Notes: generated from the letters alone by a model not told the origin. DNA of 64,000 bases from Dipteris shenzhenensis (GCA_047967505.1 CM106538.1), one strand, 5' to 3'; counted from the first letter of the stretch, positions 25,564-49,408 are shown. Numbers and translations: made by a program.

Positions 25564-26113
25564 TTACCAGCCAGCTTTCTTCTTCTCGCGATGCTCATAC
25601 AGTGCGTAACCCGCAGATCCCAGAGCTGCTACTCCAGCCAGCTCTGCTTCTGTCTTATGCCTCCCAGCATCCGCTACATCGGTCTTTGCTTTGTGGCCTT
25701 CATACTGCACACAATTAACCACGAAACATCGGTATTAGAATCCTCTCCTTCCTCATCGCATCGACTTTCCCCGCACATACTAGAAAAGGAAAAACGCTAG
25801 CGTCCGGGAGGACGTCCCACAGCGACGTCTGTAATGATCTTACCAAAGCGAATGCTCCTGCCGCAACGGCACCCAGCTCACCGAGGTGCTCGTTGCGCTG
25901 ATAGGCGCCCTTCTCCTGGCGGCGAGAGTAATCGACTTCCTCCTCTCTTACACGCTCGTAGGTCTCTCCGTAAGGACGGCTGGCGTAGCGGTCGCCATAA
26001 ACGTAAGATCCTTCGTGGCAACGAGGGGGCGGAGCTTCCACGTAGGAAGTCCTTTCGTAGGAGTCATCATAGTAGACTTCTTCGGGCTGGTGGTGGTGGT
26101 GGTGGTGCGACAT
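25564..26113 (-). CDS. ASR: ABA/WDS-induced (ASR-like) protein, copy 1; exons 26113-25844 and 25704-25564; 136 aa
   Basis: N-terminal His run. EHLGELGAVAAGAFAL|YEGHKAKTD...HKTEAELAGVAALGSAGYALYEHREKKK matches the ABA_WDS family pattern. Phase-0 GT-AG intron; in-frame stop at 25564. Confidence 0.92.
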
Positions 26114-27834
26114 GTTGAATGAGGTGATGAAGAACAAGAGGGGGAGCTGTGAGCCTGCTGCAAGTTGGAAAGACTGGCTTTCCGAGTTCCTATTTATCAT
26201 AGAAAAGCGGCAGTAATCAAAGATGCGAAAGGGCTCACAGGGTGGAGGCGTGACGAATCCGATTCGTTCCCGTTACGTCAAAAACTATTGCGCCAGAAAA
26301 AGTCGTGATTCGGTGACACTTCACAGAAGCACTCCGGCCAATATCTGCTTGATTTCGATATCTCGAGATGACAAAATATCGTGAGGTTTTTATGATTATA
26401 GACACCTGGTTTTTGAAATTCATTGCACACAACTTAGTACAACAATGGAATGTTGAGGGGTGTCGTGCTTGAATCTCCACTTTCATTTCCATGGTGGGAA
26501 ATCAAATCACTTTAACTATACGAACTAAAAACTCGTTTTGGAGCCAATTGCTCCAGTAGTAAACCCCTCAAACTCCAAAATTACATCTTTGAAATACCTA
26601 TACTTTTCTGAGGAAAAGGAGATAAGGGAGGAGATCATTATTCAACACATCATAGTCTCGTCTATTGTAAAAGAATCTGGATATATACAAATTTTTTGTA
26701 GGATCTACATACCCCTTAAATAGACTATCATCGATAAGCGAGGTGTTATTGCTAGTGAATAATAAATCATTTGCTCAAATAGCAAGCAAAGTTTTAAGCA
26801 TGCATTCAACACCTGGCTTGTCGAGTTTATATATTTTATTTAAGTAATGTGAGTGGTATTACTATTAGCCCCTATTTTCATAAAACAGAAGCTCCTCAAA
26901 AATTCTTCTCAACTTACACAGCCCCTCGAGGGCATTTTCCCAGGTGGCTCTCCATGCTCCTCAAGCTCTCTTGGAAGTTGTTGGAACGTGGACAAGTTTT
27001 GATTCTTGTGTCACGAAGCTTTCAAGTGAGTCCCTATTCCTCTTCACAAGCTAGCTAACTAATAACATAAATCATTTCTTGTTTCTTTGTTTGCTTTCTT
27101 AATTTAAACCAAGGAACCACATGGTACAATGAAGTTTGTCATGAGTTGTAAGAGAACTAGACAAAGGCTGTGAGATAGGAAAGTTGATATACCCGATCAA
27201 GGTATGAGGAGGAGGTTGAAAGCCATGGAAGTTGATGATATGATATCTAAACAACGATGGAAGACACATTTGCAATGAATGCCGAGGGAGAGACAAATGC
27301 TACTCTCATAGGTAGTAAAGAGGGAGAGACAAATGCTACTCTCGAAGGCTACTAGTAGATGCACCCATTTGAGCAGTGCCATCAAAATGAAGAACACGAG
27401 ATGTGGTTTCAAATCTATAAGGAGCATTTGAGGTAGCAACATTAGGTCAGTTAGTTGGCGATGAGGCTCGTATCCTTAGAAGGTTTACCCTATACCCAAG
27501 AATTCATTGAGTTTCCACTCTTCCAATGCCCCAAGACTAGAGTTACATGCCCAAGAGGTCATACTCTCTAACTCTAGGGATGGCCTCGACAATGTGAAAG
27601 GGCTGAATAGCTTAGATCAACTAGCTGCAAAGAGGGAAATATTAGTTATGTTATTTTCATCTGAAACAAACATGAAACAGCTTGGGTGCACAATGTCAAA
27701 GATGTTGTCCATTAGAAGGACCAATGCAATTCTAGTAATTAGTGTCAATCGGAAGCGATGTAGCTCGATGTGAGAATCTTGAGGGTATGTATTACCTAAT
27801 TGCAAGAAAAGAAGCGACTACCTAAGTGAGGAAG

Positions 27835-28983
27835 TGTGACGCTCCAATTTTGTATATGAAATATTTTGGAGTATATATCACAGATAGTGTTCAAAAAGGA
27901 TGGTTTTGATGTTTTAAAGGTTTTGGGAAAGTTTGGTGTTGGTCGAAAAATTTTGGTTTTTGTCCATTATGGTGTCGGCTGGATTTTGCGGCTTGATTTG
28001 AGTTGGTTAGAGAAATAATTTGAAGAAACTCTATATGAGAGAGTTTTAGATTTTGTTGAGTAGAAAAACTTTGTCCTGGTGAAAAATTTGTGGTTCACTC
28101 GTTTGCATGCCTGTATGGAGGTCAGAAGTTGCTAACAAAGTGGTTTTGAGCTAAAAGTGCATCTAGATTTCCGTGTCAAGAGTTGCAGGCATTAGACGGA
28201 GGTCGAGATGGAAGAGTTAGCCATGAAAGGTCAAATGCAAAAGGGAAAGAAGAGGGTCCGATCTTCGAGATGAGCTATTGAGCTTGTCCATTGGATCTAC
28301 GAGGCAGGCGTGGTGATGCTCCGAACAGGGCTGTTTTCATGCCTTTAAAAAACAAAAAGAAAAAAAGAAAAAAAGAGACACGTCGAGATTCCGTACGCGT
28401 TTGCTATCATAAGCGCACGCTAAAAGAAGGTGAAAAGCACACGCACGCTTTTGGAGAAAAGCTATTTTTGGCCGATTTTGGAGGCTTTTGGCCGCTTATT
28501 TTGGAGTCGTGAAAGGCTATAAAAGAAGAGGAGATCGTGAGAAGGAGAACACACAATCCAACGCATGCATATCGAGGCTGAGCGAAAGAGAAGAGAAGGC
28601 ACACATCTCGAGGTTGCTCGAGCGAAGAGAAGGCATGCATATCGAGGTGCTGCGAAAGTGACAATAGCGCACGCGAATCGAGGCAGTGCAAAGAAGAAGA
28701 TAAGATCAAGATATTTTGAGAGAGAGAGTGAGAGTGAGAGTGAGTGTGATTGAGATTTGATCATTGGATCATCTAATTTGAACATCTTCATGCGAGTGGG
28801 AGTGAGAGTGAGATATCTCGGGGGTGGACGGGTGGTATCGAGCTCCTTCACGGAGTGATTCTTCTCCAAAATTATTGTAAATACTCATCAGTTTGATTCA
28901 TACTGCAATCTTTCTTCTTGTTCATTCGTGATTATTATCTTGCTACAATTTTGATTGTGATTGTGAAAGAACGATGCGTGACA
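27835..28983 (+). repeat. 5' LTR (1149 bp)
   Basis: Direct repeat of 48265-49408 with scattered substitutions. Contains the TATA-like ctataaaag. Confidence 0.97.
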
Positions 28984-32000: not shown

Positions 32001-33544
32001 TCTTTCCGAGTATGACTTTGAGATTAAGTACATTGAGGGAAAGGAGAATAGGGTGGCTGATGCTTTAAGTAGAAGACCTTTCGTGAATGCCATCACCCTT
32101 ATTCGTTCCGATCTTGGAGAAAACATTAGAAATGAACTTGAACATGATGTTTCTTATGCACCTATTCTTCAAAAGATTGCTCAAACACCTTGTGAAAAGA
32201 TTGAAGGAAAGTCTCATTTGGTGAATGGTAATTTATATTGCCATGATAGACTTTGTGTACCATGTGATTCACCTTTGAGATGGAAAATCTTGTATGATTG
32301 TCACGATGCTCCATTTTCGGGACATGTTGGATATAACAAAACATACAGCAAGGTTCGAAAATCATTTTATTGGCCTACACTAAAGCATGGTGTTCATCGT
32401 TATGTCCAAGAATGCTTACAATGTCAACAAGTGAAGGTGGAACAACATAAGATGCCTGGTAAGATGCAACCTTTGGATATACCTTTCAGGAAGTGGGAAT
32501 CAATATCCATGGATTTTATTACTAAACTACCTACAGCTCGAGGGGGATATGATACCATTTTTGTCATCGTTGATCGTCTTACTAAAATGGCACATTTCTT
32601 TCCTATGAAAAAGACTGATGGTGCTCTTGAGGTAGCTAAGTTGTTTGTGAAAGAAATTTTCCGATTGCATGGGATGCCTAATAGTATTGTGTCAGATAGG
32701 GATTCCAAATTTACTTCTAATTTTTTGGAAGGTCACATTCAAAGCAATTGGGACGGAGCTTAAGATGAGTACAGCTTTTCACCCACAAACAGATGGAGAA
32801 ACTAAAAGGGTTAATCGCGTACTTGAGGATATGCTTCGAATGTATGTTAATGAGAAGCAAACAAATTGGACTGAATTCCTATCCTTAGCTGAGTTTGCTT
32901 ATAATAGTTCATGGCATAGCTCCATTCAAATGACTCCATTTGAAGCCATGTATGGTCAGAATTTCCACACTCTTGTGAATTTTGCAGATCCTCAAAATAG
33001 AGTCGAAGTGTCTAGACAAATGCTTGAGAGGATGGATGAGGAAGTGAAACTGATTCGGGAGAGCATTCAAAGAGCACAAGACATGCAAAAGCATTACTAT
33101 GATAAGAAGCGGTCTTTCCATGAATTTCAGATTGGGGAGATGGTATCTCTGAAAGTAATACCTAAACGCAGTAATCTAATCCTTGGGAAGGATAGAAGAC
33201 TCTCACCTCATTTCGTAGGACCTTTTCAAATCTTAAAGAGGGTGGGAACGCTTGCATATCAACTTGAACTGCATGAGAACATAAAAGTGCATCCTGTTTT
33301 CCATGTCTGTTTATTGAAATCTTATGTTGCCAACCCAACTCATATTTTTCAGGACAAGTCTAGGATCATGGAGGATGGGACTTTGAAAGTCGAACCTGAA
33401 TATATATTAGATAGGAACACGAAGCGGCTTAGGAATAGAACAATAGAAGAAGTTTTGGTTAAGTGGGATGCTTATCCTGTAGAAGATGCTTCCTGGGTAG
33501 ACTTAGATGCCTTACTTAATGAGTTTCCTTCATTTAAACTCTGA
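29073..33544 (+). pseudogene. Gypsy gag-pol (gag, CCHC knuckle, protease, RT, RNase H, integrase, chromodomain), disrupted by stops and frameshifts
   Basis: gag 29303-29821; CFRCGEQGHQTFEC knuckle; protease remnant near 30285; RT with [11 protein letters not shown] and FLDD (30764-31525); RH/INT with HHCC and SISMDFITKLP (31612-32763); GPF motif and chromodomain EVLVKWDAYPVEDASW (to 33544). Confidence 0.95.
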
Positions 33545-33546
33545 GG

Positions 33547-33573
33547 AACACACTATTCAAAATTTTTGGACTT
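33547..33573 (+). repeat. Left TIR AACACACTATTCAAAATTTTTGGACTT
   Basis: Exact reverse complement of 48209-48235. Confidence 0.95.
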
Positions 33574-33898
33574 TCTCTCTTGGTTTGGACTTTTTTTTGG
33601 AGCATATCCTTTCCACTCAACTTCACTTAGTGAGCTAAAAAATTGGGTTTTTTGAGCACTTAATGGGTCACTTATATACAAATATGGCCTTATTAAGCTA
33701 GTAAAAAGTCAAGTGGTAACCTCTAATTTTAAAAAAAATGGCTCGCTGAAGCTATAATTCCCAAACTCATGCATGGTGCCTCCATCCAATAACTATAATA
33801 ATAATAATAGTAGTCTCCTAACTCAAGTTCAATTTTAACACTATGAAGTGAAAATATGACACCATATGAAAAGAGTTTGTTGAATTCAACATATAAGT

Positions 33899-34158
33899 GG
33901 TGTATAGATACACCATTTAAAAAAAAAAAAAGAGTTTGTTGAATTCAATACATAAGTGGTGTATAGATACACCCTTTTTTAAAAAACAAACCATACAATA
34001 AATTATCTTATTGGTGGTGTATAGATACACCATTTGTATGGAAAAAAGCATACAAAACATTATCTTATGCATCTGAATCTCGTTATTGGTGGTGTATAGA
34101 TACACCATTTGTATGGAAAAAAGCATACAAAACATTATCTTATGCATCTGAATCTCGT
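33899..34158. repeat. Left subterminal repeats carrying the palindrome GGTGTATAGATACACC (4 copies)
   Basis: Copies at 33899, 33958, 34016 and 34091. Includes a ~75-bp tandem duplication overlapping the transposase stop. Confidence 0.85.
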
Positions 34159-37100
34159 TCAGAGTCATCAGACTCATGTAATGTATTTGAGCTTGATGGG
34201 TCAAGTCTTGCCAAATGATGTTTAATATGGACACGACTTGGATCAGGGATTGTGATACATTTTTCAACATTGTATCCATGCTTCTTTTTAAAACTTCGTG
34301 TCCTCGATTTCCAACAATGAATAATGCTACTGACTTCCACCTCTGTTAATCCCTCATTATTTGGAACCCATTCACGTTTCTTTTGCAAGCATCCCTCATA
34401 GAGTTGTTTTATTGTATATCTTCTCGGGAGATTTTTTAATGGCTTTGGTTCATACCATAAAGCTGTAAATGTTATAGGAGTTCCCTTGTCATCCCTTTCT
34501 ATCTTAGTAACCTTTGCAACCCAAATTGGGCCACCTTGGTCATCCAACTCTGAACCCGGATCACATGCCCAAACTGCAACAAATAGACCCTCTTCAATCT
34601 CATTACATGGTATAAACTCTGGTAAGGGTTTGTCTCCCTTCCTGCCACAATATTTTCGAGGTAAAAGGCATTCCTCTGCTTCCTCCATATCTACTAACAT
34701 ATTTATATCCAAAGGAAAACTTGGTGACCTAGCTTGTTCCGGCCAAAAGGATTCAGAGTATTCAATGCTCATTAAGTTTTCTTGTCTTTCTAAAGATTGG
34801 ATAAGTGCTTTAGTTGATTTAATTGTCTCCAAATTCTTAGTTGATTGCTCAGGATATTTCTGCATCATACTTTGAAGATGTTTAATGAAGGCTTTCAAGC
34901 CTTTCATTTCATCTATGTCAAGTGATTTGTTTTTTGCAAGAACAAATCTAGTTTCCTCCAATGGAATTATTCGTTGTAACAAAGCATATGACTCACTCCA
35001 TAAATGATCTCCATCTACTGAGTAGTGCTTCCATTGCATCACTGGAATATTGTTATGCATGTGAAACTGAAAGTAGTGTGGATTTGTGTGTCCTATTAGG
35101 GCATCATCTCCTGTTTGTAAATGTGGCTCTATAAATGCTCTCCAATCTACCATCCTCTCTAAGATAGCCACTTCTGATTCTTCCTTACGAGAACCTCCAA
35201 TTTTTTTCCCAATTCGAAATAGCATATCCTCCATTGTCAAAACATCCATTGCCTTCAACTCACCAGAGATAACACTGAAGATTTGATCTATGTCTTCATG
35301 TGTATGGCCGACAAGAAGAAAGCCAACTTCCACTTCTTCAAATATTTTCAGACCAACCAACATAGAGCATAAAGCAAATATATATTTATTCTTGTTCTCT
35401 CTCCAATAATTATCAGCTTGTATTCGCAATGTGTTAGGCAAACATCCGCGAGCATCTCTGACCTTTCTTATTGCTTTCATGATTGATGTAACAACCTGGT
35501 TACTATCATGGTCATGCAAACTATCAATCCATACATCACAAAATATTCGGTATCCATGTACTAATACTCCACACAAGTGTGTTTTTAGTCCACGTTTGCC
35601 CTCCAATGCCGGTGGGATACGTCTATATCGTGGCAAAGTGGTTGTATTCTGGTCCATGCCATCAATGGTGATGCACATGGACTTATTGACATGTGAAATA
35701 GCTTCCTCTCTCCAAGAAGCATACAACTTTCGAGCATCCTGCACATGACGTAAATGGATTGATCGCCATTTAATATATCTTCCTCGCTGCTGCTCACATT
35801 TACTATGTTCAATGGCATTTTTTAATTCATCACATGTCTTACATTTTGACATCCTTTGCTTTGATGGTGTCTTGACATGGCAAAAATCTCTACGCCAAAT
35901 TTTGTACAAGGTTGATCGTGAAATCATGCTCTCGTCTCTGTCTTGTAAAGTTTTATTGACAGTCTCTAGGACGACCTTCTTTGGCATTGGCATTCGACAC
36001 GTCCATCTAGCATTGTTTGTTGAAGATGAGGCTGTGGTAATGCATGGTCTTCGAGAACTTGCTTTAATGTTGCGGTTGCATTTATAGTGCTTCCATGGCA
36101 TTTAAGCTTGTACGTATTTCCATGAATTGTATGAATAACTTTTTCTTTCACCTCTGCCCAGATGGTCCAATATGTGCCATGTGATAGTCCAGTTAACCAT
36201 TGATATCCTCGATTGCAAATGGGTCTCCCATTAACCATGGGTTTCAATCTAGGTTTACAGTGTCCTGTGCTCAAATCTTGATTAGTGCCTTGATGAAGAA
36301 AGCATGAAAACTCTTGAAGAAGATAGTTATGTCTATTAGGCGCTGTCTTACTCCAAATACCAAGGCGTATGGCTGCACAATCATCTTTCCCAACTTTTCT
36401 AATGCAAAGTCTCTTGCAACAAACTCGCATAAGCATCCTTTCCATATTCTCCTCGGATAGCATCACATGTCTCTTTGGTTCTGGAATTGATGCCATGATT
36501 CTTCGCCTCTTCACACTCACATACTTTCTTTTTGTAAATAGTGTCTTGCGTTTTCTAGTTGTAAGACCATCAAACCTCGAATCCATTTCCCTTGAATCTT
36601 CATCTTTATAATCAAATGCTGTGTAGGCTTGAGAATTATTTGATACCTTATAATATCTTGGAAATGGCAATCTGGTCGACATGTTCATTGATGTCAATTT
36701 GTTGCTAATGCCTCTTGAATTTTGTGGTTGAACTGTTTCTCCTTCGTAACTCAAGATTCTCCCATCTATATTCTCTGGCATGCTAGCAACAATATTCTCA
36801 GATTCTCTGCCCCTTTTGCCTTGTATTGGAGTGGTAACATCATGATCATTGTCACTAATATCATCAATTCCTGTTATTGCATCACTTATCCCATTGATCT
36901 TTGCGTGTATTTTTCTTTGTGGTCCCATCTTATTATTTTCAACACATCTTCTGTCTTTTATATCAATAAGCATGTTTGAGTCACTTGCAGCACAAGACAA
37001 GTCTTCTATACCAGTGAGCCTGTTTGAGTCACTTGCAACACAGGATAAATCTTCTATACCAGTGAGCCTGTTCGAGTCACTTGCAACACATGACAAGTCT

Positions 37101-40100
37101 TCTATACCAGTGAGCCTGTTCGAGTCACTTGCAACACAAGACAAGTCTTCTATACCAGTGAGTATATTTGAGTCACTTGCAACACAAGAAACCTTTTCTG
37201 CATCAACATCTGTTACTATAATGTCCTCGATACCTGTGAGCATGCCACTATGATACTCTTGATTACTACTATAGCTTCTTATCAATTTGGATCCCATTTG
37301 TGTTATAGTCTTTTTCTTCTGATAATATTCTGTTGTGTCTTCCATGACATTGAAGGAAACTGTCTTGGGCAAACTTGATTTCAAGAAAGCTAACCCCCAT
37401 TTACAAGTACTATGAACTTGTAGTTGAGACGTAGTATTATGGACGTCTAATTGTGAAGTACTATCCATTGCATTTTGAATGACACCTGCACTAGTCAACT
37501 TAATTATCTCCACTATACAGAGAAAACTCTGAGCATAGCCCTTAAAGTTGCCAATTGCTAAAACTTCTCCGAAGCGAGATAACATCTGTACTTTTTCCCC
37601 CTGGATATAAGTTTTCTTGATATCTTGAAAGTATGTCTTTGGAACAATTTCGTCTTGGTCCCAGAGTGTTCTGTGTGCTTGCATATCAAATATATCACAT
37701 TGTAAGATATCTCCCAATGTTTCAAAGTCTCCATGTGGATATTTTAAATGTACTTCAGGATTTACAACGTTGGTGATTATCACTACACATCTTCTCTCAC
37801 CACAACGTTGAAAATGACACACATTCATAGGATCAAGACTATGAATTCGTCCAAAAGCCACCACTTCATTCTTCTCATATAACACCACATCCATACCCTC
37901 TGTTAGGGTGAATACCTGTTTTATGTATAAAAGTAAATTAGCAACTCAAAATGAACATTTAATAAATAACCATTGAGCTTATTATTACTTAATAACTTCT
38001 ATATCAAAACTAGCAGAGAAGGCATTAACCTAAACCCTACATCCTAAACTTTAAATAATTAATACCAAAACATCTTAACCACCGTAAATCCTAAACTTTA
38101 AACATTTAATTCTTAAACCCTAAATCCTAAACCCTAAAAATATAATCATAAACACTAAACCCTAAACACTAAATCTTAAATCCTAAGCCCTAAATCCTTA
38201 ACCCTAAATACTAAACCCTAAACCCTAACCTAAAATACAATCAAAATTTTATGATTTTTCTCGATTTGTACAACATGTTAGATATACCCCCAACTCAAGC
38301 AACACGTTGGGGGGTATATCCGACCTGTTGCACAAATCTAGAATTTTCTCGATTTGTGCAACAGGTCGGATATACCCCCCAACCTGTTGCTCAAGCAACA
38401 GGTTGGGGGATATACCTGCAACCTGTTGCTTAAGCAACAGGTTGGGGGGTATATCCAACCTGTAGCACAAATCGAGAATTTTCTCGATTTGTGCAATAGG
38501 TTGGATATACCCCCAACCTTGTTGCTCAAGGTTGGGGGGTATATCCTACCTGTTGCACAAATCGAGAATTTTTTCGATTTGTGCAACAGGTTGGATGTAC
38601 CCCCCAACCTGTTGCTCAAGCAACAGGTTGGGGGATATACCCACAACCTGTTGCTTAAGCAACAGGTTGGGGGGTATATCCAACCTGTTGCACAAATCGA
38701 GAATTTTCTCGATTTGTGCAAGAGGTTGGATATACCCCCAACCTTGTTGCTCAAGGTTGGGGGGTATATCCTACCTGTTGCACAAATCGAGAATTTTCTC
38801 GATTTGTGCAACAGATTGGATATACCCCCCAACCTGTTGCTTGAGCAACAGGTTGGGGTATATCCAACTTGTTGCATGAATCAAGTTGGATATACTCCAA
38901 CATGTTGCACAAATCGAGAATTTTCTTGATTTGTGCAACAGGTTGGATATACCCCCAACCTGTTGCACAAATCAAGAAAATTCTCGATTTGTGCAACATG
39001 TTGGAGTTACTCCCCAACCTGTTGCTTGAGCAACAGGTTGGGGGGTATATCCGACCTGTTGCACAAATCAAGAATTTTCTGGATTTGTGCAACATGTTGG
39101 ATATACCCCCCAACCTGTTGCTTGAGCAACAGGTTGCGGGTATATCCCCCAACCTGTTGCTTGAGCAACAGGTTGGGGGGTATATCCGACCTGTTGCATA
39201 AATCGAGAAAATTTTCGATTTGTGCAGCAGGTCGGATATACCCCCAACCTGTTGCTTAAGCAACAGGTTGGGGGTATATCTAACATGTTGCACAAATCGA
39301 GAAAAATCATAAAATTTTGATTGTATTTTAGGGTTAGGGTTTAGGGTTTAGTATTTAGGGTTAAGGATTTAGGGCTTAGGATTTAAGATTTAGTGTTTAT
39401 GATTATATTTTTAGGGTTTAGGGTTTAGGATTTAGGGTTAAAAATATAGGGTTTAGGGTTTAGATTTTAGGGTTTATGATTATTGTTTTAGGGTTTAGGA
39501 TTTAGGTTTTAAGGTTTAGTATATAAGATCATGAGCTTAGAGTGTAGAATCTAGGGTTTAGAATTGAGAATTAGGTTTTAGAATTTAAGTTATAGGGATT
39601 AGGATTTAAGGTTTAGGAATTATAACTATTATATAAGTTTAAGAGCTTAGATTATATAACCTAAGATTTAGGAAACTTTAGGATTTAAGATTTAGGGTGT
39701 AAGATTTAAGATATATAGACTATATAAAATATGCATTCTAAAGTATTTAGTTTAGATATATATAGACTATATGTTATATGCTTTCCAAAGTGTTTTGTTT
39801 ATAGGTATGATACATTGCAAAGGCTTTACTTTAAGTAAGTATAAGTCTACCTAGTCAAAGTAGGATCAAAGTATCCTACTGATTAGGGACAAGCACATAG
39901 GCTAAAAGCACACCGATTCATATTTTTTTACATTCATGCTGCATGGTGTATCAAAAGGTACGATCCTTTGCAAAGGCTTTACTTTAAGTAGTTACAAGCC
40001 TACCTACTCAAAGTATCCTACTGATTAGGAACAAGTACATAGGCTAAAAGCACACCGATTCGAAGAAGTGATGTATGCACACTGATTAGGAAGAAGTGCA

Positions 40101-41693
40101 TGGTGTATGAGAAGAAATGAAAAAGTATTTGATAAGAAATATTCGAAGAAATATATATTCCATATCATGGACATTCTAAGAAATATGTATTCCATATCAT
40201 GGATACCATGGATATCTGGTGCTTGCTAAAGTAAAAAAAAATGATATGGATGCAATGATAATGTAGTCTTCTAGATTCTATGGTTTTAAATACCTACCTT
40301 ACAAATACATTATCTAATTTTGCATTCTTTCGACTAACCAACAAGTATTATACACATGGAATCATGGATATCTGATGGTTACTAAAGTAAAAAAATGATA
40401 TGGATGCAATGATAGTGTAGTCTTCTAGATTCTATGGTTTTAAATAACTACCTTACAAATACATTATCTAATTTTTCATTTTTTGACTAACTAACAAGTA
40501 TTATACATATGGAATAAAAGCATACATGCTAAAAGTAAGTGTGTAAATTTTAATATTTTCTAAATTTTAAAATTAATTTAATTCTTTTATTGACTACTTT
40601 TTAAAATTGAAAGGTTATTAGTATATAATCTACATAATTTTAAATGTTATTAATGTATAATATTAATTATTTATATATTTATTTAAATTTATATAATAAT
40701 TAATTTATATTTATATTAGTTTTTAAGTTAATAATGTATAGAAGAGCAATATATTCACTAATTCTTCATTGTTTTAAGACTAAGTATTATATAAAGCACA
40801 TATGCTAGAAGATCTCCTTTCAATTTTTTTCTTAAATTAATGTATTTATATATTTATTTATATAATAATTATATAATATTTATATTAATTTATAGATTAA
40901 TAATATATATTTTTAGTAAAATTATATTTTAACATTAGTTAATAAAAATTTAATTAATTATATTATGGGGTAAAAATATTATAAATGGATTTCTTATATT
41001 AATAAAGTGTAGTGAGAAGAGTTTTTTGAAAAGATTTATGATTGAATTTTGTTTTGAAGTTGTTGCGTACGCAATAGGTAGGACATTTGAGTGGTTTTGA
41101 GATTGATAGAGATATTTGTAATAACGTGTAGTGAGAAGAGTTTTTTGGAGGATTTGTGGTAAAATTTTGTTTTGAAGTTGTTGCGTACGCAATAGGTAGG
41201 GAGGTTTGAGTGCTTTTGAGGTTGAGAGAGAAATGTGTTATAGATTTTTTTTTTTTTAAAAGGAGTTTTTTGGAGAGATTTATGATTGAATTTTGTTTTG
41301 GAGTTGTTGCGTACGCAATAGGTAGGGAGGTTTGAGTGGCTTTGAGGTTGAGAGAGAAATTTGTAATAGATTTTTTTTTTTGGTTGATGAGTTTTTTTGA
41401 GAGATTTATGATTAAATTTTGTTTTGAAGTTGTTGCGTACGCAATAGGTAGGGTTTGAGTGTTAAATTTTGTTTTGAAGTTATTGCGTATGCAATAGGTA
41501 GGGAGGGGTTGTGAGAGTTTGAGTTAAAGAGGAAAATTTATGGAAAAAAAGATTTAATGCTAAAATGGTTTTTTAAGTTGTTGCGTACACACAAGTTTTT
41601 TAGAAAAAAATCGGATTTGAAAAAAAATTCAAATTTATAAAAACTTGATTCTTAGAAGTTCTTGCGTACGCAACAACTCACCTCTTGCATCAT
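34140..41693 (-). CDS. DDE/DDD transposase gene (Sola-like/DUF7869-like core). Predicted exon 1 41693-41682 (MMQE), exon 2 from 37915; one frameshift near 35990
   Basis: Core motifs: CKTC, ITIDGMDQ, LRIQADNYWRENKN, FLLVGHTHEDIDQIFS. The N-terminal ORF (37894-35966) has Tnp1/EnSpm-like VAFGRIHSLDP domains and a CCKRLC...PICNR Cys region. Splice signals: AG|GTGAGT donor at 41681, CTAAT branch and CAG acceptor at 37916; the splice is in frame. Confidence 0.85.
36975..37190 (-). repeat. Coding 48-bp (16-aa) tandem repeat LTGIEDLSCVASDSNR, ~4.5 copies
   Basis: gagtcacttgca recurs every 48 bp and stays in frame in ORF 35966-37894. Confidence 0.92.
38027..38233 (+). repeat. Degenerate plant telomere-type repeats (CCCTAAA)n
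   Basis: Runs of taaaccc/taaatcc/taaacac. Confidence 0.85.
38113..39440. repeat. ~1.3-kb fold-back (inverted-repeat arms) filled with nested palindromic units
   Basis: Arm ~38113-38290 is the reverse complement of ~39270-39440. The interior is built from ACCTGTTGCTYRAGCAACAGGT and TGTTGCACAAATCGAGAATTTTCTCGATTTGTGCAACA units joined by GGGGGTATATCC/GGATATACCCCC. Confidence 0.92.
39327..39710 (+). repeat. Degenerate plant telomere-type repeats (TTTAGGG)n
   Basis: Runs of tttaggg/tttagga that decay with distance from the fold-back. Confidence 0.85.
39800..40510. repeat. Two local tandem duplications (~120-150 bp each)
   Basis: ~39805-39920 repeats at ~39957-40060; ~40207-40360 repeats at ~40362-40514. 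Confidence 0.75.
41010..41680. repeat. AT-rich ~120-bp tandem array, each unit with TGTTGCGTACGCAATA
   Basis: Motif at 41061, 41179, 41305 and 41431, with variants at 41481, 41579 and 41660. Confidence 0.9.
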
Positions 41694-41789
41694 TTTGAAA
41701 ATTTTTGCGAATCCTGCAACAGGTTGATGAGAGAAGAGAAGCGTGGAGTGTAAACGAATGATCTTTGAATGAAAGAGAGAATGAAGAAT

Positions 41790-41885
41790 GTTCTACTTAT
41801 AGTGAACCTAAAAGAACTAAAAAAACCTTAAAAACTAAAAAAAGCGGACTTGACCTAAAAGCTATCCATTTCCTATAAAACTCTA
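41790..41885. promoter_or_regulatory. Candidate bidirectional promoter of the DNA transposon
   Basis: Plus-strand TATAAAA at 41874-41880 and minus-strand TATAAG at ~41796-41801. Each is followed by a pyrimidine-rich leader and a splice donor (41964 plus; 41681 minus). Confidence 0.65.
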
Positions 41886-41963
41886 CTTCTCCTCATTCTG
41901 TCTCACAACTCTCTTATTCTCTTTCACAACTCTCTCCTGGAGCTCCACCACCTCTCCACTCAG

Positions 41964-43832
41964 GTACTCCCTCCCTCCCTCTTCTCCAACTTCCTCTCTC
42001 CCCTCCCCTTCCCGTCCCTTCCCCTCTCCTCCCGCTTCTCCCCTCCCTTCCCTTCCCCCTTCTCCTCTCCTCCCTCCCCAAGGCCCCTTCCCTTCCCATT
42101 GCCTGCTCCCTCCTCCTTCCGTCCCCTTCCTTCCCTTCCCCCTGTCGTCGCTACCCCGCTCCCACCCCCCTCCGCCCCCCTTCCCTCTTCTCCGCCCTTC
42201 CCACTCCCCTCCCTCCCTCCGTCCCGCCCTCCGCCGCACCCCCCTCCTGCCCTGTCGTTGACCCTTTGCCCCCCCTTCCCTTCGCCCTCCCCTCCGTCCC
42301 TCCCTCCCTGCCGCCCTCCCCCCCTCCGCCTCCCCCTTTCCTCCCCTCCGCCCCCAAGCCCCCCCTTCCCTTCGCCCTCACCCCCGTCCCTCCCTCCCTG
42401 CCGCCCACCCACCCTCCCCCCCTCCGCCTCCCCCTTTCCTCCCTCCGCCCCCAACCCCCCGCCCCCTCCCGCCCTCCCCACGCCCCCCCCCGCCGGCGCG
42501 CCCGCCCCCTTCCGTCGTCGGAAGGGGACGGGCGCACCGGGGGGGGGGCGTGGGGAGGGCGGGAGGGGAGGGGAGGGGGGCGGGCGTGCCGGGAGGGGGG
42601 GTTGGGGGCGTGGCGAGGGCGGGGCGGGCGCGCCGGGAGGGGGGCTGGGGGCTGAGGGAGGGGGGGGTGTGGGGAAGGGGAGGGGGGGCAAGGGCGCCCC
42701 CCCCCCACCTGTTGCGCACGCAACAGGTGGGGGGGGGGCGCCCTTGCCCCCCCTCCCCTTCCCCTCGCGCCCGCCCCCCCTCCCCTCCCGCCCTCCCCAC
42801 GCCCCCCACCGCGCACGGGGGGGGGCGTGGGGAGGGGGGGAGGGTCGGGCGTGGGGGGGGCGGGAGGGGAGGGGGGGCGTGGGTGGGGCGGGGGGCGTCG
42901 CGAGGGCGGAGGGGGGGCGGGCGCGCCGGGAGGGGGGGCTGCGGGGGGTGGGGAAGGGGAGGGGGGCGAGGGCGCCCCCCAACCTGTTGCGTGCGCAACA
43001 GGTGGGGGGGTCAATCCCCCCCACCTGTTGCGCACGCAACAGGTGGGGGGGCGGCCCCCCCCACCTGTTGCGTGCGCAACAGGTGGGGGCTTCCCCCTCC
43101 CCTCCCGCCCTCCCCACGCCCCCCACCGCGCGCCCGCCCCCCTTCCGGACGGAAGGGGGCCCGCCCCCCCCTTCCGAACGGAAGGGGGGGCGTGGCGTGG
43201 GGGGCGCGGGAGGGGAGGGGGGGCGTGGGTGGGGCGCGGGGGGGCGTGGCGAGGGCGGAGGGGGGGCGGGCACGCCGGGAGAGGGGGCTGTGGGAGGCGG
43301 GGTGTGGGGAAGGGGAGGGGGGCGAGGCGCCCCCCAACCTGTTGCAACAGGTGGGGAGCTTCACCCCACCCGCCCCCCTTCCCTCCCATCCGCCCATCCC
43401 TCCCGCCTTCCCCTTCCCTCCCCCAACCCCTCCTTCCCGCCCCCCGCGCGCCTGTCCCTCTCCCCTCCGCCCCCACGTGCCCTCCCCTCCGCCCCGTTCC
43501 CTCCCCTCCAACCCTCGCACACCCCCGTCCTCCCCACGCCCCCGCGCGCGCGTTGAGAGGGGGGTTGGGGGCGGAGGGAAGGGGGGGTGGGGGAGCGCGA
43601 GAAAGGGAGGGGGGCATCGATGCCCCCACCTGTTGCGCACGCAACAGGTACCCCTCGCCCCCCTCCGCTTCCCTCCGCCCGCCCGACCCCCGCTCCTTCC
43701 TTCCCTTGCCCCTCCCCTTCCCTCACCACATGCACACACACGTGTGGAGAGGGAAGGGGAGGGGCAAGGGAAGGGGTGTGGGGAAGGAGCAAGGGGGAGG
43801 AGGGCGGGCGGAGGGAAGAGGTGGGCGTGGGT
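41964..43832. repeat. Extremely GC-rich low-complexity tract with G/C runs and embedded palindromes (predicted 5'-UTR intron)
   Basis: Alternating C-rich and G-rich blocks. ACCTGTTGCGYRCGCAACAGGT cores at 42710, 42985, 43026, 43066 and 43631. CCCTTCCG..CGGAAGGG hairpins near 42516, 43150 and 43178. Confidence 0.9.
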
Positions 43833-44012
43833 GATTAAAATAAACTAACTAATTAAAATAAAATAATTTAAAAAAATATTTTATTTTAAAAATTAAAAAT
43901 AAATAAAACTTAAAAAATATTTAATTAAAAATTTATTTAATATTTTGAGTTTGAAAATCATTGTATTTCTCATTTTTTATTTTTGATTGTTTTTCAGAAA
44001 ACTATAGCTTTC

Positions 44013-47000
44013 ATGGCTTCCAGTTTTGGTTCCAAGGTGTCTTTCAAATACCTTGAACATGCTTGGTATTTTATGGAGCGGAAATCAAAGTATTTTTTGG
44101 TGATCACTTCAGAGAACATATCAAGCCCGAAATATTCTGCAGAGGCAGTAAGAAATGGTGGCATGGTATCAAACATCAATATTAAAGAAAACAATTTAAT
44201 AGAAATTGTGTGCCAAGGAAAGAATGACGAGGTGGTTTACAAGTTACGAGTTACTCCGAAGCACTTCTTGAAACCGTTACCAGATTCAATTGAGGGATCC
44301 CAAGAATTACTTAATGCCTTAGAAGCATTGAAGAAAATGTGGGATGCATTTCCAAGTGGTGGTGTTGAACCTTCAGGGGCATTAATTATGCCATCTATTC
44401 AAGTACCGTCAATATCTGTGGCGGTAACTCCGATAACTCCAACAAGTGTAACTACAGTATCTCCAACTGTACCTATGCCATCGACTGCTGCAACTACAGG
44501 AACAAGAAGGAGTGATCGTGGAGTAGACTCAAGTGCTATAGCTATTCCTAGAAAGAGAGCAAAAATAACTCCTACTCCACGTGGAGATCGCTCAAGTGCA
44601 GGCTATTTAAAACCTGGCGAAAAATTGGATAGCGATGAAGAGAAAGATCAGCAAGAAGAAGATACAAGTCTCGAAGACTTTTCTATAAGTGTGGCGGACT
44701 TACATCCTCCAGAGGATGAGGGATACATTTGGGGATTTTCACAATTCAGCGTGGCCACAATGCTTATTGATCGAGCTTCATTGTTCACAAATCAAAGAAA
44801 GCTCGATAAGATATTTGCACGCAAATTGTATGAAGATACAAGGAAAACAAGAACTCCCGTTGCCACTAATATCACTCTTCGTCCTATGGCGTTTAAGAGA
44901 CTTCAAGAAGATGATCCCACATTGCCTGATGTCACATTTCAAAAGCGCGTGGACTTTCTTGATGCTTTTGAGAACTTTAGAAAGAGTGACTTTGTTCGTG
45001 GAGAGGCTTTGTATCAAAGCCGATATGGGAGTGACATCGAGAAGAGATACATGCTGGCAAAGAATAGATTCTTAGAAAGATGTAGGTTTGAGCCCATTGA
45101 TGGGCAACACTTTTGTGAGGCTTGCAGGATCGCCCTTGATGAGGGAAGAAAAGGAAACTTGCCACAGATTGAGTGGATGGAAAAGTTTCAACGGGTCATT
45201 TGTCATATATGCATATTTAATGATGACTCGAAGTACATTCTAGAATCAGAGAGGCTGAACTCTGCTCCATTTAGGTTGAAAAAAAGCTCTTCTCTTTCTG
45301 AGATCTTGATAAAGGCAAGGGAGTTATGGATGGGCTGTGGAAAGCCACAAACAGTGAAGGGCAGGAGACCTACATCAGAGTACATGACAAAGAGGACTCG
45401 GTTCTATAGATGCTTGAAAGGTGTTGTAAGCAATACGCAAGGCATACCAGGTAACAAGGTTGAGGCAAAGGATTTGAACACCGCTGTTGCAAGATATAGG
45501 GATGTTACCTGCATTGTCTTCCGTGAGGAATCAGTGTTTCAGAGCATCGTGGATGTTTGCCAAGCATATGAAACAGGAAAGATATCCTTTGAGGCACCAG
45601 AGCACATTGCAACTCAGAGGAAAGAAATAAAGAAACCGATGTCTATTGTTTGGTGGAGAGCTTTAAGGTTTGTTCCAGATGCAATAACAGAAGAAGTATG
45701 CAAGAAGATCCTAAGTGGTGACTGCTTCTTTGGAAAGAAGAGCAAGCATAGCAACTTAGATGAAGTGGTCACCCGAATGATTCAAAGTGAGGCTGCTCTC
45801 TCGGCACTATTATTTTTATTGAAATCTGATGATGAGTTAGCTGGCAAGTCAATTGATGTGGATAAGAAGAAAGCACTTAGCCTAGGTCAACTCCTTGATA
45901 AAACATGGGCTAGAAAGTGGTTGGCTTCAATGGATGCAGATGCCACACCAACAAAGGATCTAAGAGCTAAAATGCCAAAGGTTGTTGAGACAGAATATAT
46001 GGACATTAAGAAAAAGGCCTTGCAGTCCAGTACGCAAGGTAGAGCAATTGGTGGTTTAGATGATGGTTCTTCATTCAGCTTCTCTTATGATATCCTGCTA
46101 TCAGAGAATGATACAAAATTTGCACACATCAATGGCATTGATACGGAGCATTTCATAACAATGAGCGGTCATGCTTGGGAGAAGCCATGCGTATTTTTCA
46201 TAAATGAATTGCAAGACCTTGCAGTGTCACAGATAGTTGAACTTGTGCGGTTTATTGTTGAAGGTCCTATGGCAGATAAGAAAAGATCAACGTTGGTCCT
46301 GTTCGTGACAGAATCACAAAGGGATGCCCTATATGCGAGTTTGACATCTTCATTTGGGTATTTACTTTCAAAAGTATACCATGGTATAGTCCTGCGTAAT
46401 CATATGACTGTCTTGGAAGGCACTGCCATTCAAGTCTTGCAGCCTTTCTTGATGTGCTTCTTATCGAGGGGTGGTGGTAATCTAATCCAAACTCCTTTAA
46501 GGACTCTCGAGCTTCATTACTTTGAGGACCATAAGGTTAAGCTTGATGCAGCAATGGTGGATTACAGAAAGCCGATGGATCCTGATGTGATACTAGAGAT
46601 GACAAAGAATTTATTGAATGATGGGTGGGAAGTAGCATTGTATCGAATGGGTTTTGCTGCTGAGAAATTGCTACGGCAAGGTAAAAATGTAAATGTTATT
46701 GATACCCCCCATCAAATTGAGTTCTTTGACACATATTACAGTTGCACTACTTTCTTTGAGGAGGAAAATGTCAAAGAAGAGGGTAGTGAGTCTGAGGGTG
46801 ATGATTCTAGCTCAGGTGATGATGAGGATGAAAGCTCTGCATCCGATGACTTACGGCAAGAAGAAATCCGCACAAAGAATAAGGGTGATCAATTGTCAAC
46901 TAGAGTCAAGGAGGTTCCACTCATCATACGGGAAGGTTCACGGCAACAAGAAGTTACAGTAGTACAGCACGTCACAGGTAAAGGTAAGGCTAAAGAGGTG

Positions 47001-47417
47001 GAAGCACTTCCCTTAAAATTAAAAGTGAGAAAGGCACCCTTGATCTTGGATGAAGGACAGGCAAGTGGATCGATCTTGGGTGAAGGACAGGCAAGTGGAT
47101 CAAGCAAGGAAGCCTTACTCAAAGAAGGTATGGACGAGGCAAAGCATGACCAGGAGGAGTTACCAGGAGGCATAGATGGTTCTTCAACCATGACCTTACA
47201 GACTCCAGAGCAGCCTACTAGTCAGGAACCTAGTAGCCAGGTCCCTACTTACCAAGAACTTGGTCATGAGACTCTAGAGCAGCCTACTAGTCAGGTGCTT
47301 GGAACTGAAGAGCAAACTAGTAAGGACCTTGCTACTGAGACTCCAGTCTTAGAGCAGCCTATTAGTCAGGACCCTGGTAGTCAAGGGCCTGGCATTGAGG
47401 ACATTGGTACTGAGTAA
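44013..47417 (+). CDS. Intact ~1134-aa transposon-borne protein: ParB/Sulfiredoxin-like domain, degenerate N4/N6 DNA-MTase-like domain and acidic repetitive tail
   Basis: Uninterrupted 3.4-kb ORF; first ATG at 44013 just after a polypyrimidine-CAG acceptor (43997). NQRKLD..FARKLYE..NITLRP..FEPIDGQHFCEA (DGQH at 45099-45110). The MTase-like pattern spans ~46119-46730. Domain calls are by eye. Confidence 0.85.
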   Translation: MASSFGSKVSFKYLEHAWYFMERKSKYFLVITSENISSPKYSAEAVRNGGMVSNINIKENNLIEIVCQGKNDEVVYKLRVTPKHFLKPLPDSIEGSQELLNALEALKKMWDAFPSGGVEPSGALIMPSIQVPSISVAVTPITPTSVTTVSPTVPMPSTAATTGTRRSDRGVDSSAIAIPRKRAKITPTPRGDRSSAGYLKPGEKLDSDEEKDQQEEDTSLEDFSISVADLHPPEDEGYIWGFSQFSVATMLIDRASLFTNQRKLDKIFARKLYEDTRKTRTPVATNITLRPMAFKRLQEDDPTLPDVTFQKRVDFLDAFENFRKSDFVRGEALYQSRYGSDIEKRYMLAKNRFLERCRFEPIDGQHFCEACRIALDEGRKGNLPQIEWMEKFQRVICHICIFNDDSKYILESERLNSAPFRLKKSSSLSEILIKARELWMGCGKPQTVKGRRPTSEYMTKRTRFYRCLKGVVSNTQGIPGNKVEAKDLNTAVARYRDVTCIVFREESVFQSIVDVCQAYETGKISFEAPEHIATQRKEIKKPMSIVWWRALRFVPDAITEEVCKKILSGDCFFGKKSKHSNLDEVVTRMIQSEAALSALLFLLKSDDELAGKSIDVDKKKALSLGQLLDKTWARKWLASMDADATPTKDLRAKMPKVVETEYMDIKKKALQSSTQGRAIGGLDDGSSFSFSYDILLSENDTKFAHINGIDTEHFITMSGHAWEKPCVFFINELQDLAVSQIVELVRFIVEGPMADKKRSTLVLFVTESQRDALYASLTSSFGYLLSKVYHGIVLRNHMTVLEGTAIQVLQPFLMCFLSRGGGNLIQTPLRTLELHYFEDHKVKLDAAMVDYRKPMDPDVILEMTKNLLNDGWEVALYRMGFAAEKLLRQGKNVNVIDTPHQIEFFDTYYSCTTFFEEENVKEEGSESEGDDSSSGDDEDESSASDDLRQEEIRTKNKGDQLSTRVKEVPLIIREGSRQQEVTVVQHVTGKGKAKEVEALPLKLKVRKAPLILDEGQASGSILGEGQASGSSKEALLKEGMDEAKHDQEELPGGIDGSSTMTLQTPEQPTSQEPSSQVPTYQELGHETLEQPTSQVLGTEEQTSKDLATETPVLEQPISQDPGSQGPGIEDIGTE

Positions 47418-47559
47418 CATGTTGGCTAACGGCTTTGTAATCACAAGTTTTGAACTTCTATGTAAAGCTAATATCTAATGAAAAGTTTACTACTTTTTTT
47501 ATTTCTTTACTCTCATTATTATGTATAAAGATTGTTTATGAGGGCCATTTTATACTTAA

Positions 47560-48135
47560 CGGTGTTTTTTAATACCAAGTGTGGTGTATATGTACACTAC
47601 TTACACATAAAAGGATTTATCTACACTACCTTTCTAAGGGCTTTATGTACACCACCTTTCTAAAAGAAATGGTGATAAAGGTGTGTGCACACCACTTATA
47701 CATAAAGGTGTTTATTTACACCACCTTTCCAAGAGAATTGGTCATGTATTGGTCATCTATTGATGTTCTTACGTGATTATGAAGATGTTTATGTAGACCA
47801 CTTTGTAAGAGAATTGGTCATCTATTATTGGTCATGTATTGATGTTCTTAGGTGATAGTTGCTCAATTCACAAGAAGTTATAAAGATGTTTATGTAGACC
47901 ACTTTGCAAGAGATTTTTGTGAAGTTATGAAAATGTTTATGTAGACCCCTTTGTAAGAGATTTGGTTATGCATTGATTTTTGTGAAGTTATGAAAATGTT
48001 TATGTAGACCCCTTTGTAAGAGATTTGGTTATGCATTGATGTTCTTAGTACTTAATTATTAAATCTTTTGTTTTGAGTTGGCAAATCTAGTTCAAAATCA
48101 TTAAATCTTTTGTTTTGAGTTGGCAAATCTAGTTA
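47560..48135. repeat. Right subterminal tandem repeats of the DNA transposon
   Basis: Repeated atgtttatgtagacc.cttt units, a duplicated aaatcttttgttttgagttggcaaatctagtt, and GGTGT-N6-ACAC[C/T] palindromes at 47583 and 47707. Confidence 0.75.
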
Positions 48136-48208
48136 AAAAACAACATTACTAGTATATTCAAAATTTTTGGACTGTTTTTTAGTCCATTTCTCAAATTGGA
48201 CTTTACAC

Positions 48209-48235
48209 AAGTCCAAAAATTTTGAATAGTGTGTT
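48209..48235 (-). repeat. Right TIR
   Basis: Reverse complement of 33547-33573. A 19-bp internal inverted copy lies at 48155-48173. Confidence 0.95.
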
Positions 48236-48250
48236 GAGGATAGAGTTCCT

Positions 48251-48264: not shown

Positions 48265-49408
48265 TGTGACGCTCCAATTTTGTATATGAAATATTTTGGA
48301 ATATATATCACATATAGTGTTCAAAAAGGATGGTTTTGATGTTTTGAAGGTTTTGGGAAAGTTTGGTGTTGGTCGAAAAATTTTGGTTTTTGTCCATTTT
48401 GGTGTCGGCTGGATTTTGCGGCTTGATTTGAGTTGGTTAGAGAAATAATTTGAAGAAACTCTGTATGAGAGAGTTTTAGATCTTGTTGAGTAGAAAAACT
48501 TTGTCCTAGTGAAAAATTTGTGGTTCACTCGTTTGCATGCCTGTATGGAGGTTAGAAGTTGCTTACAAAGTGGTTTTGAGCTAAAAGTGCATCTAGATTT
48601 CCGTGTCAAGAGTTGCAGGCATTAGACGGAGGTCGAGATGGAAGAGTTAGCCATGAAAGGTCAAATGCAAAGGGAAGGAAGAGGGTCCAATCTTCGAGAT
48701 GAGCTATTGAGCTTGTCCATTGGATCTACGAGGTAGGAGTGGTGATGCTCCGAACAGGGCCGTTTTCATGCCTTTAAAAAAAAAGAAAAAAAAAAGAAAA
48801 AAAGAGACACGTCGAGATTCCGTACGCATTTGCTATCCTAAGTGCACGCTAAAAGAAGATGAAAAGCACATGCACGCTTTTCGAGAAAAGCTGTTTTTGG
48901 CCGATTTTGGAGGCTTTTGGCTGCTTATTTTGGAGTCGTGAAAGGCTATAAAAGAAGAGGAGATCGTGAGAAGGAGAACACACAATCCAACGCACGCATA
49001 TCGAGGCTGAGCGAAAGAGAAGAGAAGGCATGCATCTCGAGGTTGCTTGAGCGAAGAGAAGGCACGCATATCGAGGCACTGTGAAAGTGACAATAGCGTA
49101 GGCGAATCGAGGCAGCGCAAAGAAGAAGATAAGATCAAGATATTTTGAGAGTGAGAGTGAGAGTGTGATTGAGATTTGATGATTGGATCATCTGATTTGA
49201 ACATCTTCATGCGAGTGAGAGTGAGAGTGAGAGTGAGATAGCTCGGGGGTGGACGGGTGGTATCGAGCTCCTTCACAGAGTGATTCTTCTCCAAAATTAT
49301 TCTAAAGACTCATCAGTTTGATTCATACTACAATCTCTCTTCTTGTTCATTCGTGATTATTATCTTGCTACAATTTTGATCGTGATTGTGAAAGAACGGT
49401 GCGTGACA
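48265..49408 (+). repeat. 3' LTR (1144 bp)
   Basis: Direct repeat of 27835-28983, followed by TSD GGAAG. Confidence 0.97.

Follow-up and report, generated by a model that had tools for sequence, protein, structure and literature searches.

Accessory genes with ParB-like domains were noticed only recently on giant eukaryotic transposons, in red, brown and green algae, and their products are proposed to bind the elements' own repeats. One such gene is PAG3 of giant red-algal Plavaka transposons, which joins a ParB-like N-terminal domain to a putative 2-oxoglutarate (2OG) oxygenase and whose best HHpred match is 7BNR_B, with an e-value of 0.29 (Petroll et al., bioRxiv 10.1101/2025.02.11.637652). 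In the part of that preprint that deals with them, PAG3 genes adjoin tandem arrays of inverted repeats to which binding of the element's own protein is proposed, and PAG genes are also placed on other transposon types. The 21.5-kb element Sola1-1_Ec32 of Ectocarpus is described as having a gene for a ParB-like and DNA-methyltransferase protein on the strand opposite its transposase (PMC12477816). Here we analyze a 64,000-nucleotide stretch of Dipteris shenzhenensis DNA (GCA_047967505.1 CM106538.1; hereafter the window), which contains a 14.7-kb (14,687 bp) DNA transposon with terminal inverted repeats (TIRs) at 33548-48234. The element has two long genes only, which run divergently outward from its center: open reading frame 1 (ORF1), for a putative transposase of DUF7869 type, and ORF2, for an accessory protein. 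The ~6 kb between them are filled by arrays of a palindrome with the core ACCTGTTGC-N4-GCAACAGGT, which we call S. We give an about even chance to the reading that S is a self-recognition site for a dimeric protein encoded by the element itself.

By analogy, the locus appears to have the layout of the PAG3 and Sola1 elements, placed on a DUF7869-type element. Set side by side with the published description of PAG3, it has in common a giant TIR element (>10 kb) whose accessory gene encodes a ParB-like domain at the N-terminal end, inverted-repeat arrays beside that gene (here 18 S sites in three arrays), and a domain visible only at the level of remote homology (7BNR_B at 0.29 there, 7bnr_A with a Z-score of 9.1 here). 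The two differ in their transposases, DUF7869 here and EnSpm/Plavaka there, and in their hosts, land-plant-like here and a red alga there. They also differ in that neither Pfam nor the weak and mixed fold matches of a poor 801-residue model revealed a 2OG-oxygenase or methyltransferase domain in ORF2. Like Sola1-1_Ec32, as far as its description goes, the locus is a giant TIR element whose ParB-like accessory gene is divergent from the transposase. It is unlike that element in that a search for a methyltransferase domain found none, and repeat arrays are unmentioned in the passage on Sola1-1_Ec32.

Repeat arrays of a comparable kind are known from F sopC, which consists of arrays of ~43-bp repeats that each contain a 16-bp inverted repeat. 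At our locus, too, arrays of a palindrome of the 16-bp class stand beside a gene for a ParB N-domain, and doublets of sites at 39-41 bp resemble centromeres of the repeat type. Among plant transposons, the eudicot VANDAL elements encode an accessory protein that is described as binding the element's own motifs with hypomethylation as the result (cited in bioRxiv 10.1101/2025.02.11.637652). The likeness to VANDAL, as it is summarized there, is one of concept, that of an accessory protein recognizing short motifs repeated in its own element; the protein family and the motifs are unrelated, and anti-silencing is not evidenced for the element with S. Foldback-type elements and the subterminal repeats of CACTA elements form long inverted structures out of sub-repeats and carry repeated protein-binding motifs. 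Our element has similar long inverted structures built of short sub-repeats with repeated short motifs; in contrast, its fold-back is internal, ~4.7 kb from the nearest terminus, and its termini, with the subterminal palindrome GGTGTATAGATACACC and a 25-bp TIR, are unrelated to S.

The locus is a sharply defined test case, with a 9+9-bp core palindrome in 18 copies and, at a distance of 364 bp, the gene for the one candidate binder. Natural variants that could serve as controls are present too, namely a form with a 26-nt spacer, a spacerless form, an AT-rich version incompetent to form a hairpin, and mutated half-sites in a related hairpin, L. The candidate module rides on an element with a DUF7869-type transposase, and a literature search on the name 'DUF7869' found nothing. 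If it proves to be a ParB/parS-like module, a centromere-like function would have to be considered for a eukaryotic mobile element.

The S palindrome and its three arrays

In its 16-bp form, TGTTGC-N4-GCAACA, S is found exactly 14 times in the range 38385-43646 and nowhere else in the 64 kb, where 0.01 occurrences are expected by chance; 14 were reached in 0 of 100 shuffles. The exact copies start at 38385, 38424, 38610, 38649, 38835, 39020, 39116, 39155 and 39250 in a fold-back array and at 42710, 42985, 43026, 43066 and 43631 in a GC-rich tract. Each of them is also an exact match to the 22-mer ACCTGTTGC-N4-GCAACAGGT, which with up to three mismatches has 18 matches, all in 38382-43649 (0.02 expected in 64 kb). 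The four further matches, with three mismatches each, are the copies TGTTGCGTACGCAATA at 41061, 41179, 41305 and 41431 in an AT-rich array. The 18 matches bear out every motif coordinate of the preliminary description, and all of them are confined to 5.3 kb inside the transposon. All motif counts given here come from a single element copy in the 64-kb window. We conclude that the S motif is real and well above chance.

The preliminary description had the spacer of the palindrome constant in length, which our counts contradict. Perfect pairs of the half-sites CCTGTTGC and GCAACAGG occur 14 times with a 4-nt spacer and twice with a 26-nt palindromic spacer, to which eight imperfect hairpins of the same type, 'L', are added. 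In a spacerless form, present once (CCTGTTGCAACAGG at 43338), the half-sites overlap by 2 nt.

To what extent the surroundings of S are shared was read from the consensus of the nine fold-back sites against that of the five GC-tract sites. The 9+9-bp core was identical at 18 of 18 positions and the next 7+7 bp at 12 of 14, with a C-run, A or C, and ACC on the left and GGT, T or G, and a G-run on the right. Only from ~16 bp outward did identity fall to the level of chance (9/40). The two sets of copies thus have ~36 bp in common, C-run and G-run flanks included, while the arrays in which they lie are ~40 points of GC apart. In the AT-rich array, 15 of the 18 core positions are kept and the flanks are at chance level. 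The conserved unit is longer than 16 bp and measures 22-36 bp. Within arrays, mean core identity was 1.00 and mean flank identity 0.55 (fold-back) and 0.49 (GC tract).

Site doublets at a spacing of 39-41 bp occur in both the fold-back and the GC tract. Because of this equal spacing and the shared near flanks, the two backgrounds are, to judge from sequence, diverged versions of one ~40-bp repeat unit. The view that S sits in three unrelated backgrounds whose flanks change completely consequently needs to be narrowed: it describes the AT array and the far flanks, and it fails for the near flanks of the other two arrays.

The fold-back array, parsed at 38256-39320, is a regular mosaic of S hairpins, L hairpins and linkers with nine intact S sites. 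Its S hairpin reads CCTGTTGC-TYRA-GCAACAGG, its L hairpin places the S half-sites around a 26-nt palindrome, and its 17-nt linker, TTGGGGGGTATATCCAA, alternates with its own reverse complement. Tandem Repeats Finder (TRF) gave tandem units of 225, 96 and 39 bp, and the 225-bp units are ~90-96% identical. On either side lie degenerate telomere-like arrays of period 7, (CCCTAAA)n at 38114-38228 (16.4 copies by TRF) as the left arm of a large inverted repeat and (TTTAGGG)n at 39327-39617 (27.7 copies) as the right arm; the left array pairs with 39326-39560 as inverted repeats. These telomere-type heptamer arrays, inverted and facing outward, bracket the fold-back in the manner of a miniature linear chromosome. 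More duplications, tandem and dispersed and all without S, are found in the AT-rich spacer that separates the fold-back from the AT array, at 39800-40060 and 40198-40515 (a 154-bp unit present twice).

The AT-rich array (41013-41680, plus strand; TRF and motif scan) consists of 126-bp direct repeats that have no extended symmetry, and its motif copies lie off dyad axes. Four repeats carry AGTTGTTGCGTACGCAATAGGT, with 22-mer starts at 41058, 41176, 41302 and 41428. Copies that have degenerated further were seen near 41480, 41579 and 41658, and GCAACAGGTTG stands by itself at 41716. The GC-rich tract (41964 to ~43830 or 43997, plus strand), delimited by composition, sites and a dyad map, is 65-80% GC with a peak of 80%, against ~40% for the whole window. 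It alternates C-rich and G-rich arms and has a 40-bp tandem unit (TRF). Its S sites start, as 22-mers, at 42707, 42982, 43023, 43063 and 43628, and the spacerless form at 43338 lies in it as well. Every second dyad axis carries S, by the same logic as in the fold-back, where the alternating dyad axes call for no special mechanism, because tandem repetition of a palindromic unit yields them automatically. The long C-rich and G-rich arms have strong G-quadruplex and i-motif potential.

Measured from the ORF2 ATG, the arrays begin 364 bp upstream, with the site 43628-43649, and reach back to 5.6 kb. The GC tract may be a 5'-untranslated-region intron of ORF2, with boundaries read by eye as CAG/GT at 41961-41965 and TTTTTCAG/ at 43990-43997. 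A TATA-like TATAAAA at 41874-41880, one more of the signs read by eye for such an intron, follows the AT-array sites at a distance of ~200-800 bp. This promoter-like element, together with the fact that the arrays fill the upstream region shared by two divergent genes, would suit a different reader, with S as an enhancer or silencer module for a host transcription factor dimer, amplified to aid the expression of both genes. The half-sites contain CAACAG/CTGTTG and the GC tract also CACCTG, which we take to resemble plant MYB, RAV1 and E-box type sites. A conserved stretch of 36 bp with C and G runs exceeds typical transcription-factor sites, however, and five of the sites are inside the GC tract, which is probably intronic or transcribed. 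We regard a host-factor site as improbable.

A more serious competitor requires no reader at all. S could be a neutral palindromic satellite, in which a hairpin unit was amplified and kept uniform by duplication and gene conversion, with the core as its least-decayed part. Tandem units of 225, 96, 39-40 and 126 bp (TRF) span all S sites, and longer palindromes are centered on S, with arm lengths of 11-73 nt, among them a perfect 46-nt arm centered at 42716. Folded as single-stranded DNA, fold-back and GC-tract sites form very stable hairpins (-19 to -29 kcal/mol, z -6.4 to -8.3). Tandem amplification evidently produced most copies, and the preliminary description was too strong in setting a binding site against simple tandem expansion. 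Its proposal of a dimeric protein binding site fares better and is still our best reading, given the invariant core, the AT copies that lack a hairpin, the adjacency of ORF2 and the published pairing of a ParB-like gene with inverted-repeat arrays in Plavaka elements, with tandem expansion at work as well.

Several points about the arrays weigh against self-recognition. Many S copies stem from recent tandem duplication, so their identity is in part shared ancestry and the copies are not independent, and gene conversion in palindromic arrays could homogenize the core. The flank identities were taken without re-orienting the palindromic sites, which somewhat overstates flank divergence. In the fold-back, intact S pairs have a perfect 9-mer in 18 of 18 half-sites, as against 10 of 20 half-sites that flank L hairpins (Fisher test, p = 0.0005 by site and 0.001 by nucleotide). 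This contrast favors self-recognition, but once four defective S-like half-sites are counted it is weak (p = 0.049 by site, 0.21 by nucleotide), which speaks for the satellite. Only one element copy was seen, and no related loci were found.

What a satellite does not readily explain is a core identical at 18 of 18 positions between arrays that are ~40 points of GC apart, with far flanks that agree at chance level. Nor does it explain the L half-sites, which gained uncompensated substitutions in the same structural regime. The AT copies have no stable hairpin (-1.8 kcal/mol, z -0.35 and -1.5) and nevertheless keep 15 of 18 core positions; this argues that sequence, not structure, is what is read. 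On balance we consider the neutral satellite rather unlikely, and we prefer the self-recognition site.

Outside the window, the pattern MACCTGTTGC-N4-GCAACAGGTK was found in public sequence at 34 metagenome loci and one viral locus, with a single site each and no arrays. Most of these 35 loci resemble terminator hairpins with A/T flanks, none has C-run/G-run flanks, and tblastn with ORF1 and ORF2 against them gave no match. An Rfam scan of the window returned no family.

ORF2, its ParB/Srx domain and the candidate readers of S

ORF2 (44013-47414, plus strand) encodes a 1134-residue protein that matched nothing in Pfam even at E <= 10. Sequence-level searches were equally empty, with 0 matches of its profile to PDB sequences, 0 matches in a word-based search with residues 225-600, and nothing meaningful when a set of 10 homologs was searched for a family assignment. 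The protein has 47 relatives among 1.8 billion representatives, mostly fragments. The closest named one, a hypothetical protein, comes from the lycophyte Diphasiastrum complanatum (44% identity over residues 347-489), which suggests that the module exists outside algae. An alignment of the family showed the conserved motifs TNQR, LRPI and EP(V/I)DGQH, the last followed by F, I or V.

We modeled residues 225-480 on the family alignment with AlphaFold2, which gave a mean predicted local distance difference test score (pLDDT) of 84.3 and a predicted template modeling score of 0.77. A search independent of Foldseek, through 48,161 chains, placed members of the ParB/Srx superfamily in all five top positions: PadC (Z 8.3), KorB (7.8), the pNOB8 ParB N-domain (7.8), sulfiredoxin (6.8) and a serine kinase (6.4). 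In a second fold comparison, the top 11 of the 50 matches listed were N-domains of ParB, Noc, KorB, PadC and pNOB8-ParB, with Z-scores of 7.9-9.2, root-mean-square deviations of 2.0-3.9 A and 95-116 residues aligned; 7bnr_A scored 9.1. The predicted domain covers residues 241-423 (44733-45281) and is preceded by ~240 residues. We accept that ORF2 carries a ParB/Srx N-terminal fold, an assignment made on the predicted structure and at the level of the fold only.

Under the self-recognition reading, S would be a cis-acting site carried in arrays between the two divergent genes, and a dimer of an element-encoded protein would bind its two 9-bp half-sites. The likeliest binder would be the ORF2 product with its N-terminal ParB/Srx-fold domain, with the N-terminal part of the ORF1 transposase as the alternative. 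The arrays would concentrate the binder on the element's own DNA, both at the ORF2 promoter region and ahead of it, as well as upstream of ORF1, and the purpose might be to regulate transcription or the chromatin state of the element, or to mark it as self. The arrays themselves, on this reading, grew by tandem amplification of the palindromic unit, followed by compositional divergence around the conserved core.

On the side of the protein, this proposal has difficulties of its own. Used by itself, Foldseek found nothing at E <= 0.001; its top match was a ParB chain at E 0.21. The alignments to ParB all stop short of the DNA-binding domain, at model residue ~198 and chain residue ~117-139, the helices farther downstream matched no helix-turn-helix, and neither a helix-turn-helix (HTH) nor any other DNA-binding domain was found in ORF2 by Pfam (E <= 10) or among the fold matches. 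In ParB, the part that is matched here, the ParB/Srx N-domain, does not do the reading of the sequence, as far as the published account of ParB and Noc specificity goes (PMC7383237). The name 'ParB-like protein' therefore suits the N-domain fold and does not extend to the DNA-binding domain. A prediction of the ParB-like domain as a homodimer scored 0.00, which gives no verdict and is evidence neither way. By eye, DGQH sits where CTP-binding ParBs presumably carry their arginine-rich motif, and CTP-clamp behavior is not to be assumed.

The preliminary description had gone further and linked S to bacterial parS. If S descended from parS, or if a canonical ParB recognized it as it does parS, within a partition system, the equal length of 16 bp, the common ends TGTT.C and AACA, and an adjacent gene for a ParB N-domain fold would be accounted for. 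Compared with the parS consensus quoted there, however, the S variants agree with no more than 9-11 of its 15 specified positions, and all of them depart from it in the central 6 bp. A random half-site agrees with a given one at at least 5 of 8 positions with a probability of 0.027, which is unimpressive for a comparison made after the fact, and the real conserved unit measures 22-36 bp, not 16 bp. In the source cited above, parS is read through the HTH of the central domain of ParB, and ParB and Noc tell apart sites that differ by two bases (PMC7383237); the HTH is the very part unmatched in ORF2. No ParA partner was found either, since neither of the two long ORFs has a ParA family match in Pfam, a negative that covers the element and leaves room for a trans-acting partner elsewhere. 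Further differences from bacterial ParB-parS are the setting on a nuclear eukaryotic transposon and, by eye, DGQH at the place of the arginine-rich CTP motif. The weak motif match, the unmatched HTH and the lack of ParA in the element leave parS descent or parS-type reading unsupported, and we consider true homology extremely unlikely.

The self-recognition reading can be extended to a working module that is ParB/parS-like without being homologous. In it, the ORF2 protein would nucleate at S, spread or bridge across the three arrays and build a nucleoprotein domain over the regulatory region, which might protect the element against silencing or, in a centromere-like manner, keep its copies tethered after excision or replication; array-type sites would have evolved in parallel to plasmid centromeres such as sopC. 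We think this extension quite unlikely as it stands.

The remainder of ORF2 gave little. An 801-residue model was poor (mean pLDDT 52), and its matches, the central domain of acetyl-CoA carboxylase and restriction enzymes, reached Z-scores of at most 6.3, within noise. A beta-rich C-terminal domain at 46070-46430 (ORF2 residues ~686-806) weakly matched the type II restriction endonucleases BglII, BstYI and OkrAI (Z 4.8-5.1, within noise).

ParB/Srx domains include nucleases, and a processing role for S deserves mention beside these matches. S or its cruciforms could be cut or resolved by a nuclease or recombinase of the element, or hairpin RNA from the fold-back could feed small-RNA pathways. 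S lies exactly on dyad axes with a central pyrimidine-purine step, and the 1.7-kb fold-back is bracketed by inverted telomere-like arrays, both of which would be in keeping with such a role. The restriction-enzyme matches would point the same way, but they are below a meaningful level and come from the poor model, and the AT-array copies are off dyad axes. We assign processing or hairpin RNA a low probability.

In the ESM atlas, the nearest clusters to ORF2 residues 200-1000 were fungal DUF3723 clusters at 0.92-0.93, with 146-159 shared features, below the guide value of 170; a second query of the atlas gave no usable match. DUF3723 is described as a conserved accessory gene of the Starship giant transposons (PMC9156397, in the part concerned with it). 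We treat a link between DUF3723 and ORF2 as a lead only.

The transposon and the retrotransposon around it

ORF1 (34143-37945, minus strand) encodes a DUF7869-type putative DDE/DDD transposase, which covers 187 of the 192 positions of the PF25273 profile (E 6.9e-52). It is read in two frames that join near 35972-36020, by a short intron or a frameshift, and its homologs span both frames. We detected 109 homologs, all PF25273; marine invertebrates contribute the majority, and Chara and a liverwort are also represented. Conserved acidic residues of DUF7869 in an alignment of 28 sequences are D147, D150, D230, E269, D270 and D272. The DUF7869 profile had a single match in the PDB, at chance level (E 0.9). 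At 36953-37189, ORF1 contains in-frame 48-bp tandem repeats, ~5 repeats of a 16-residue unit.

The TIRs, at 33548-33572 (plus) and 48210-48234 (minus), are exact inverted matches of 25 bp, and this sequence has only these two matches in the window (0.00 expected). Beside them, putative target-site duplications (TSDs) TGAGGA were read from the sequence at 33542-33547 and 48235-48240. The ends can be read in two ways, as a 6-bp TSD TGAGGA with a 25-bp TIR or as a 4-bp TSD GAGG with a 26-bp TIR, from this single insertion. Sola elements have a 4-bp TSD and a DDD triad. The possible 4-bp TSD GAGG would fit Sola, and thereby Sola1-1_Ec32; the affiliation of the DUF7869 element to Sola is ambiguous, as the duplication may be 6 or 4 bp.

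Pattern scans placed four exact copies of the 16-bp palindrome GGTGTATAGATACACC in a left subterminal array at 33899-34106 and copies with three mismatches each at 47583-47722 on the right. Its six sites (12 strand matches, 0.34 expected) are confined to ~560 bp from the left end and 650 bp from the right end. These subterminal sites are the likelier, putative binding sites of the transposase. A kinship of S with the element's termini was considered and rejected, as the TIR and the subterminal palindrome have nothing in common with S.

The transposon is nested in a Ty3/chromovirus retrotransposon with long terminal repeats (LTRs), where it follows the pol stop (33541) and precedes the 3' LTR. 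The LTRs, at 27835-28983 (5') and 48265-49408 (3'), both on the plus strand, form a 1155-bp direct repeat; at 94.5% identity between them, both insertions should be fairly young. ORFs for Gag, reverse transcriptase, RNase H, integrase and a chromo domain occupy 29.2-33.5 kb.

To go by its CACTA fragments, the Ty3 chromovirus and the TTTAGGG-type repeats, the window has the look of nuclear DNA from a plant-type genome. Fragments of a CACTA/En-Spm transposase (Transposase_21, DUF4218) lie at 21202-23165. An 896-bp inverted duplication, 86% identical, is found at 25466-26340 and 59585-60455, and both copies overlap an ORF with a weak ABA/WDS-domain match, about or just below the Pfam cut-off. At 63124-63297 there is a weak DUF7869-like fragment (35% identity over 65 residues to ORF1 499-562, E 1.8e-4), which may be the remnant of a related element.

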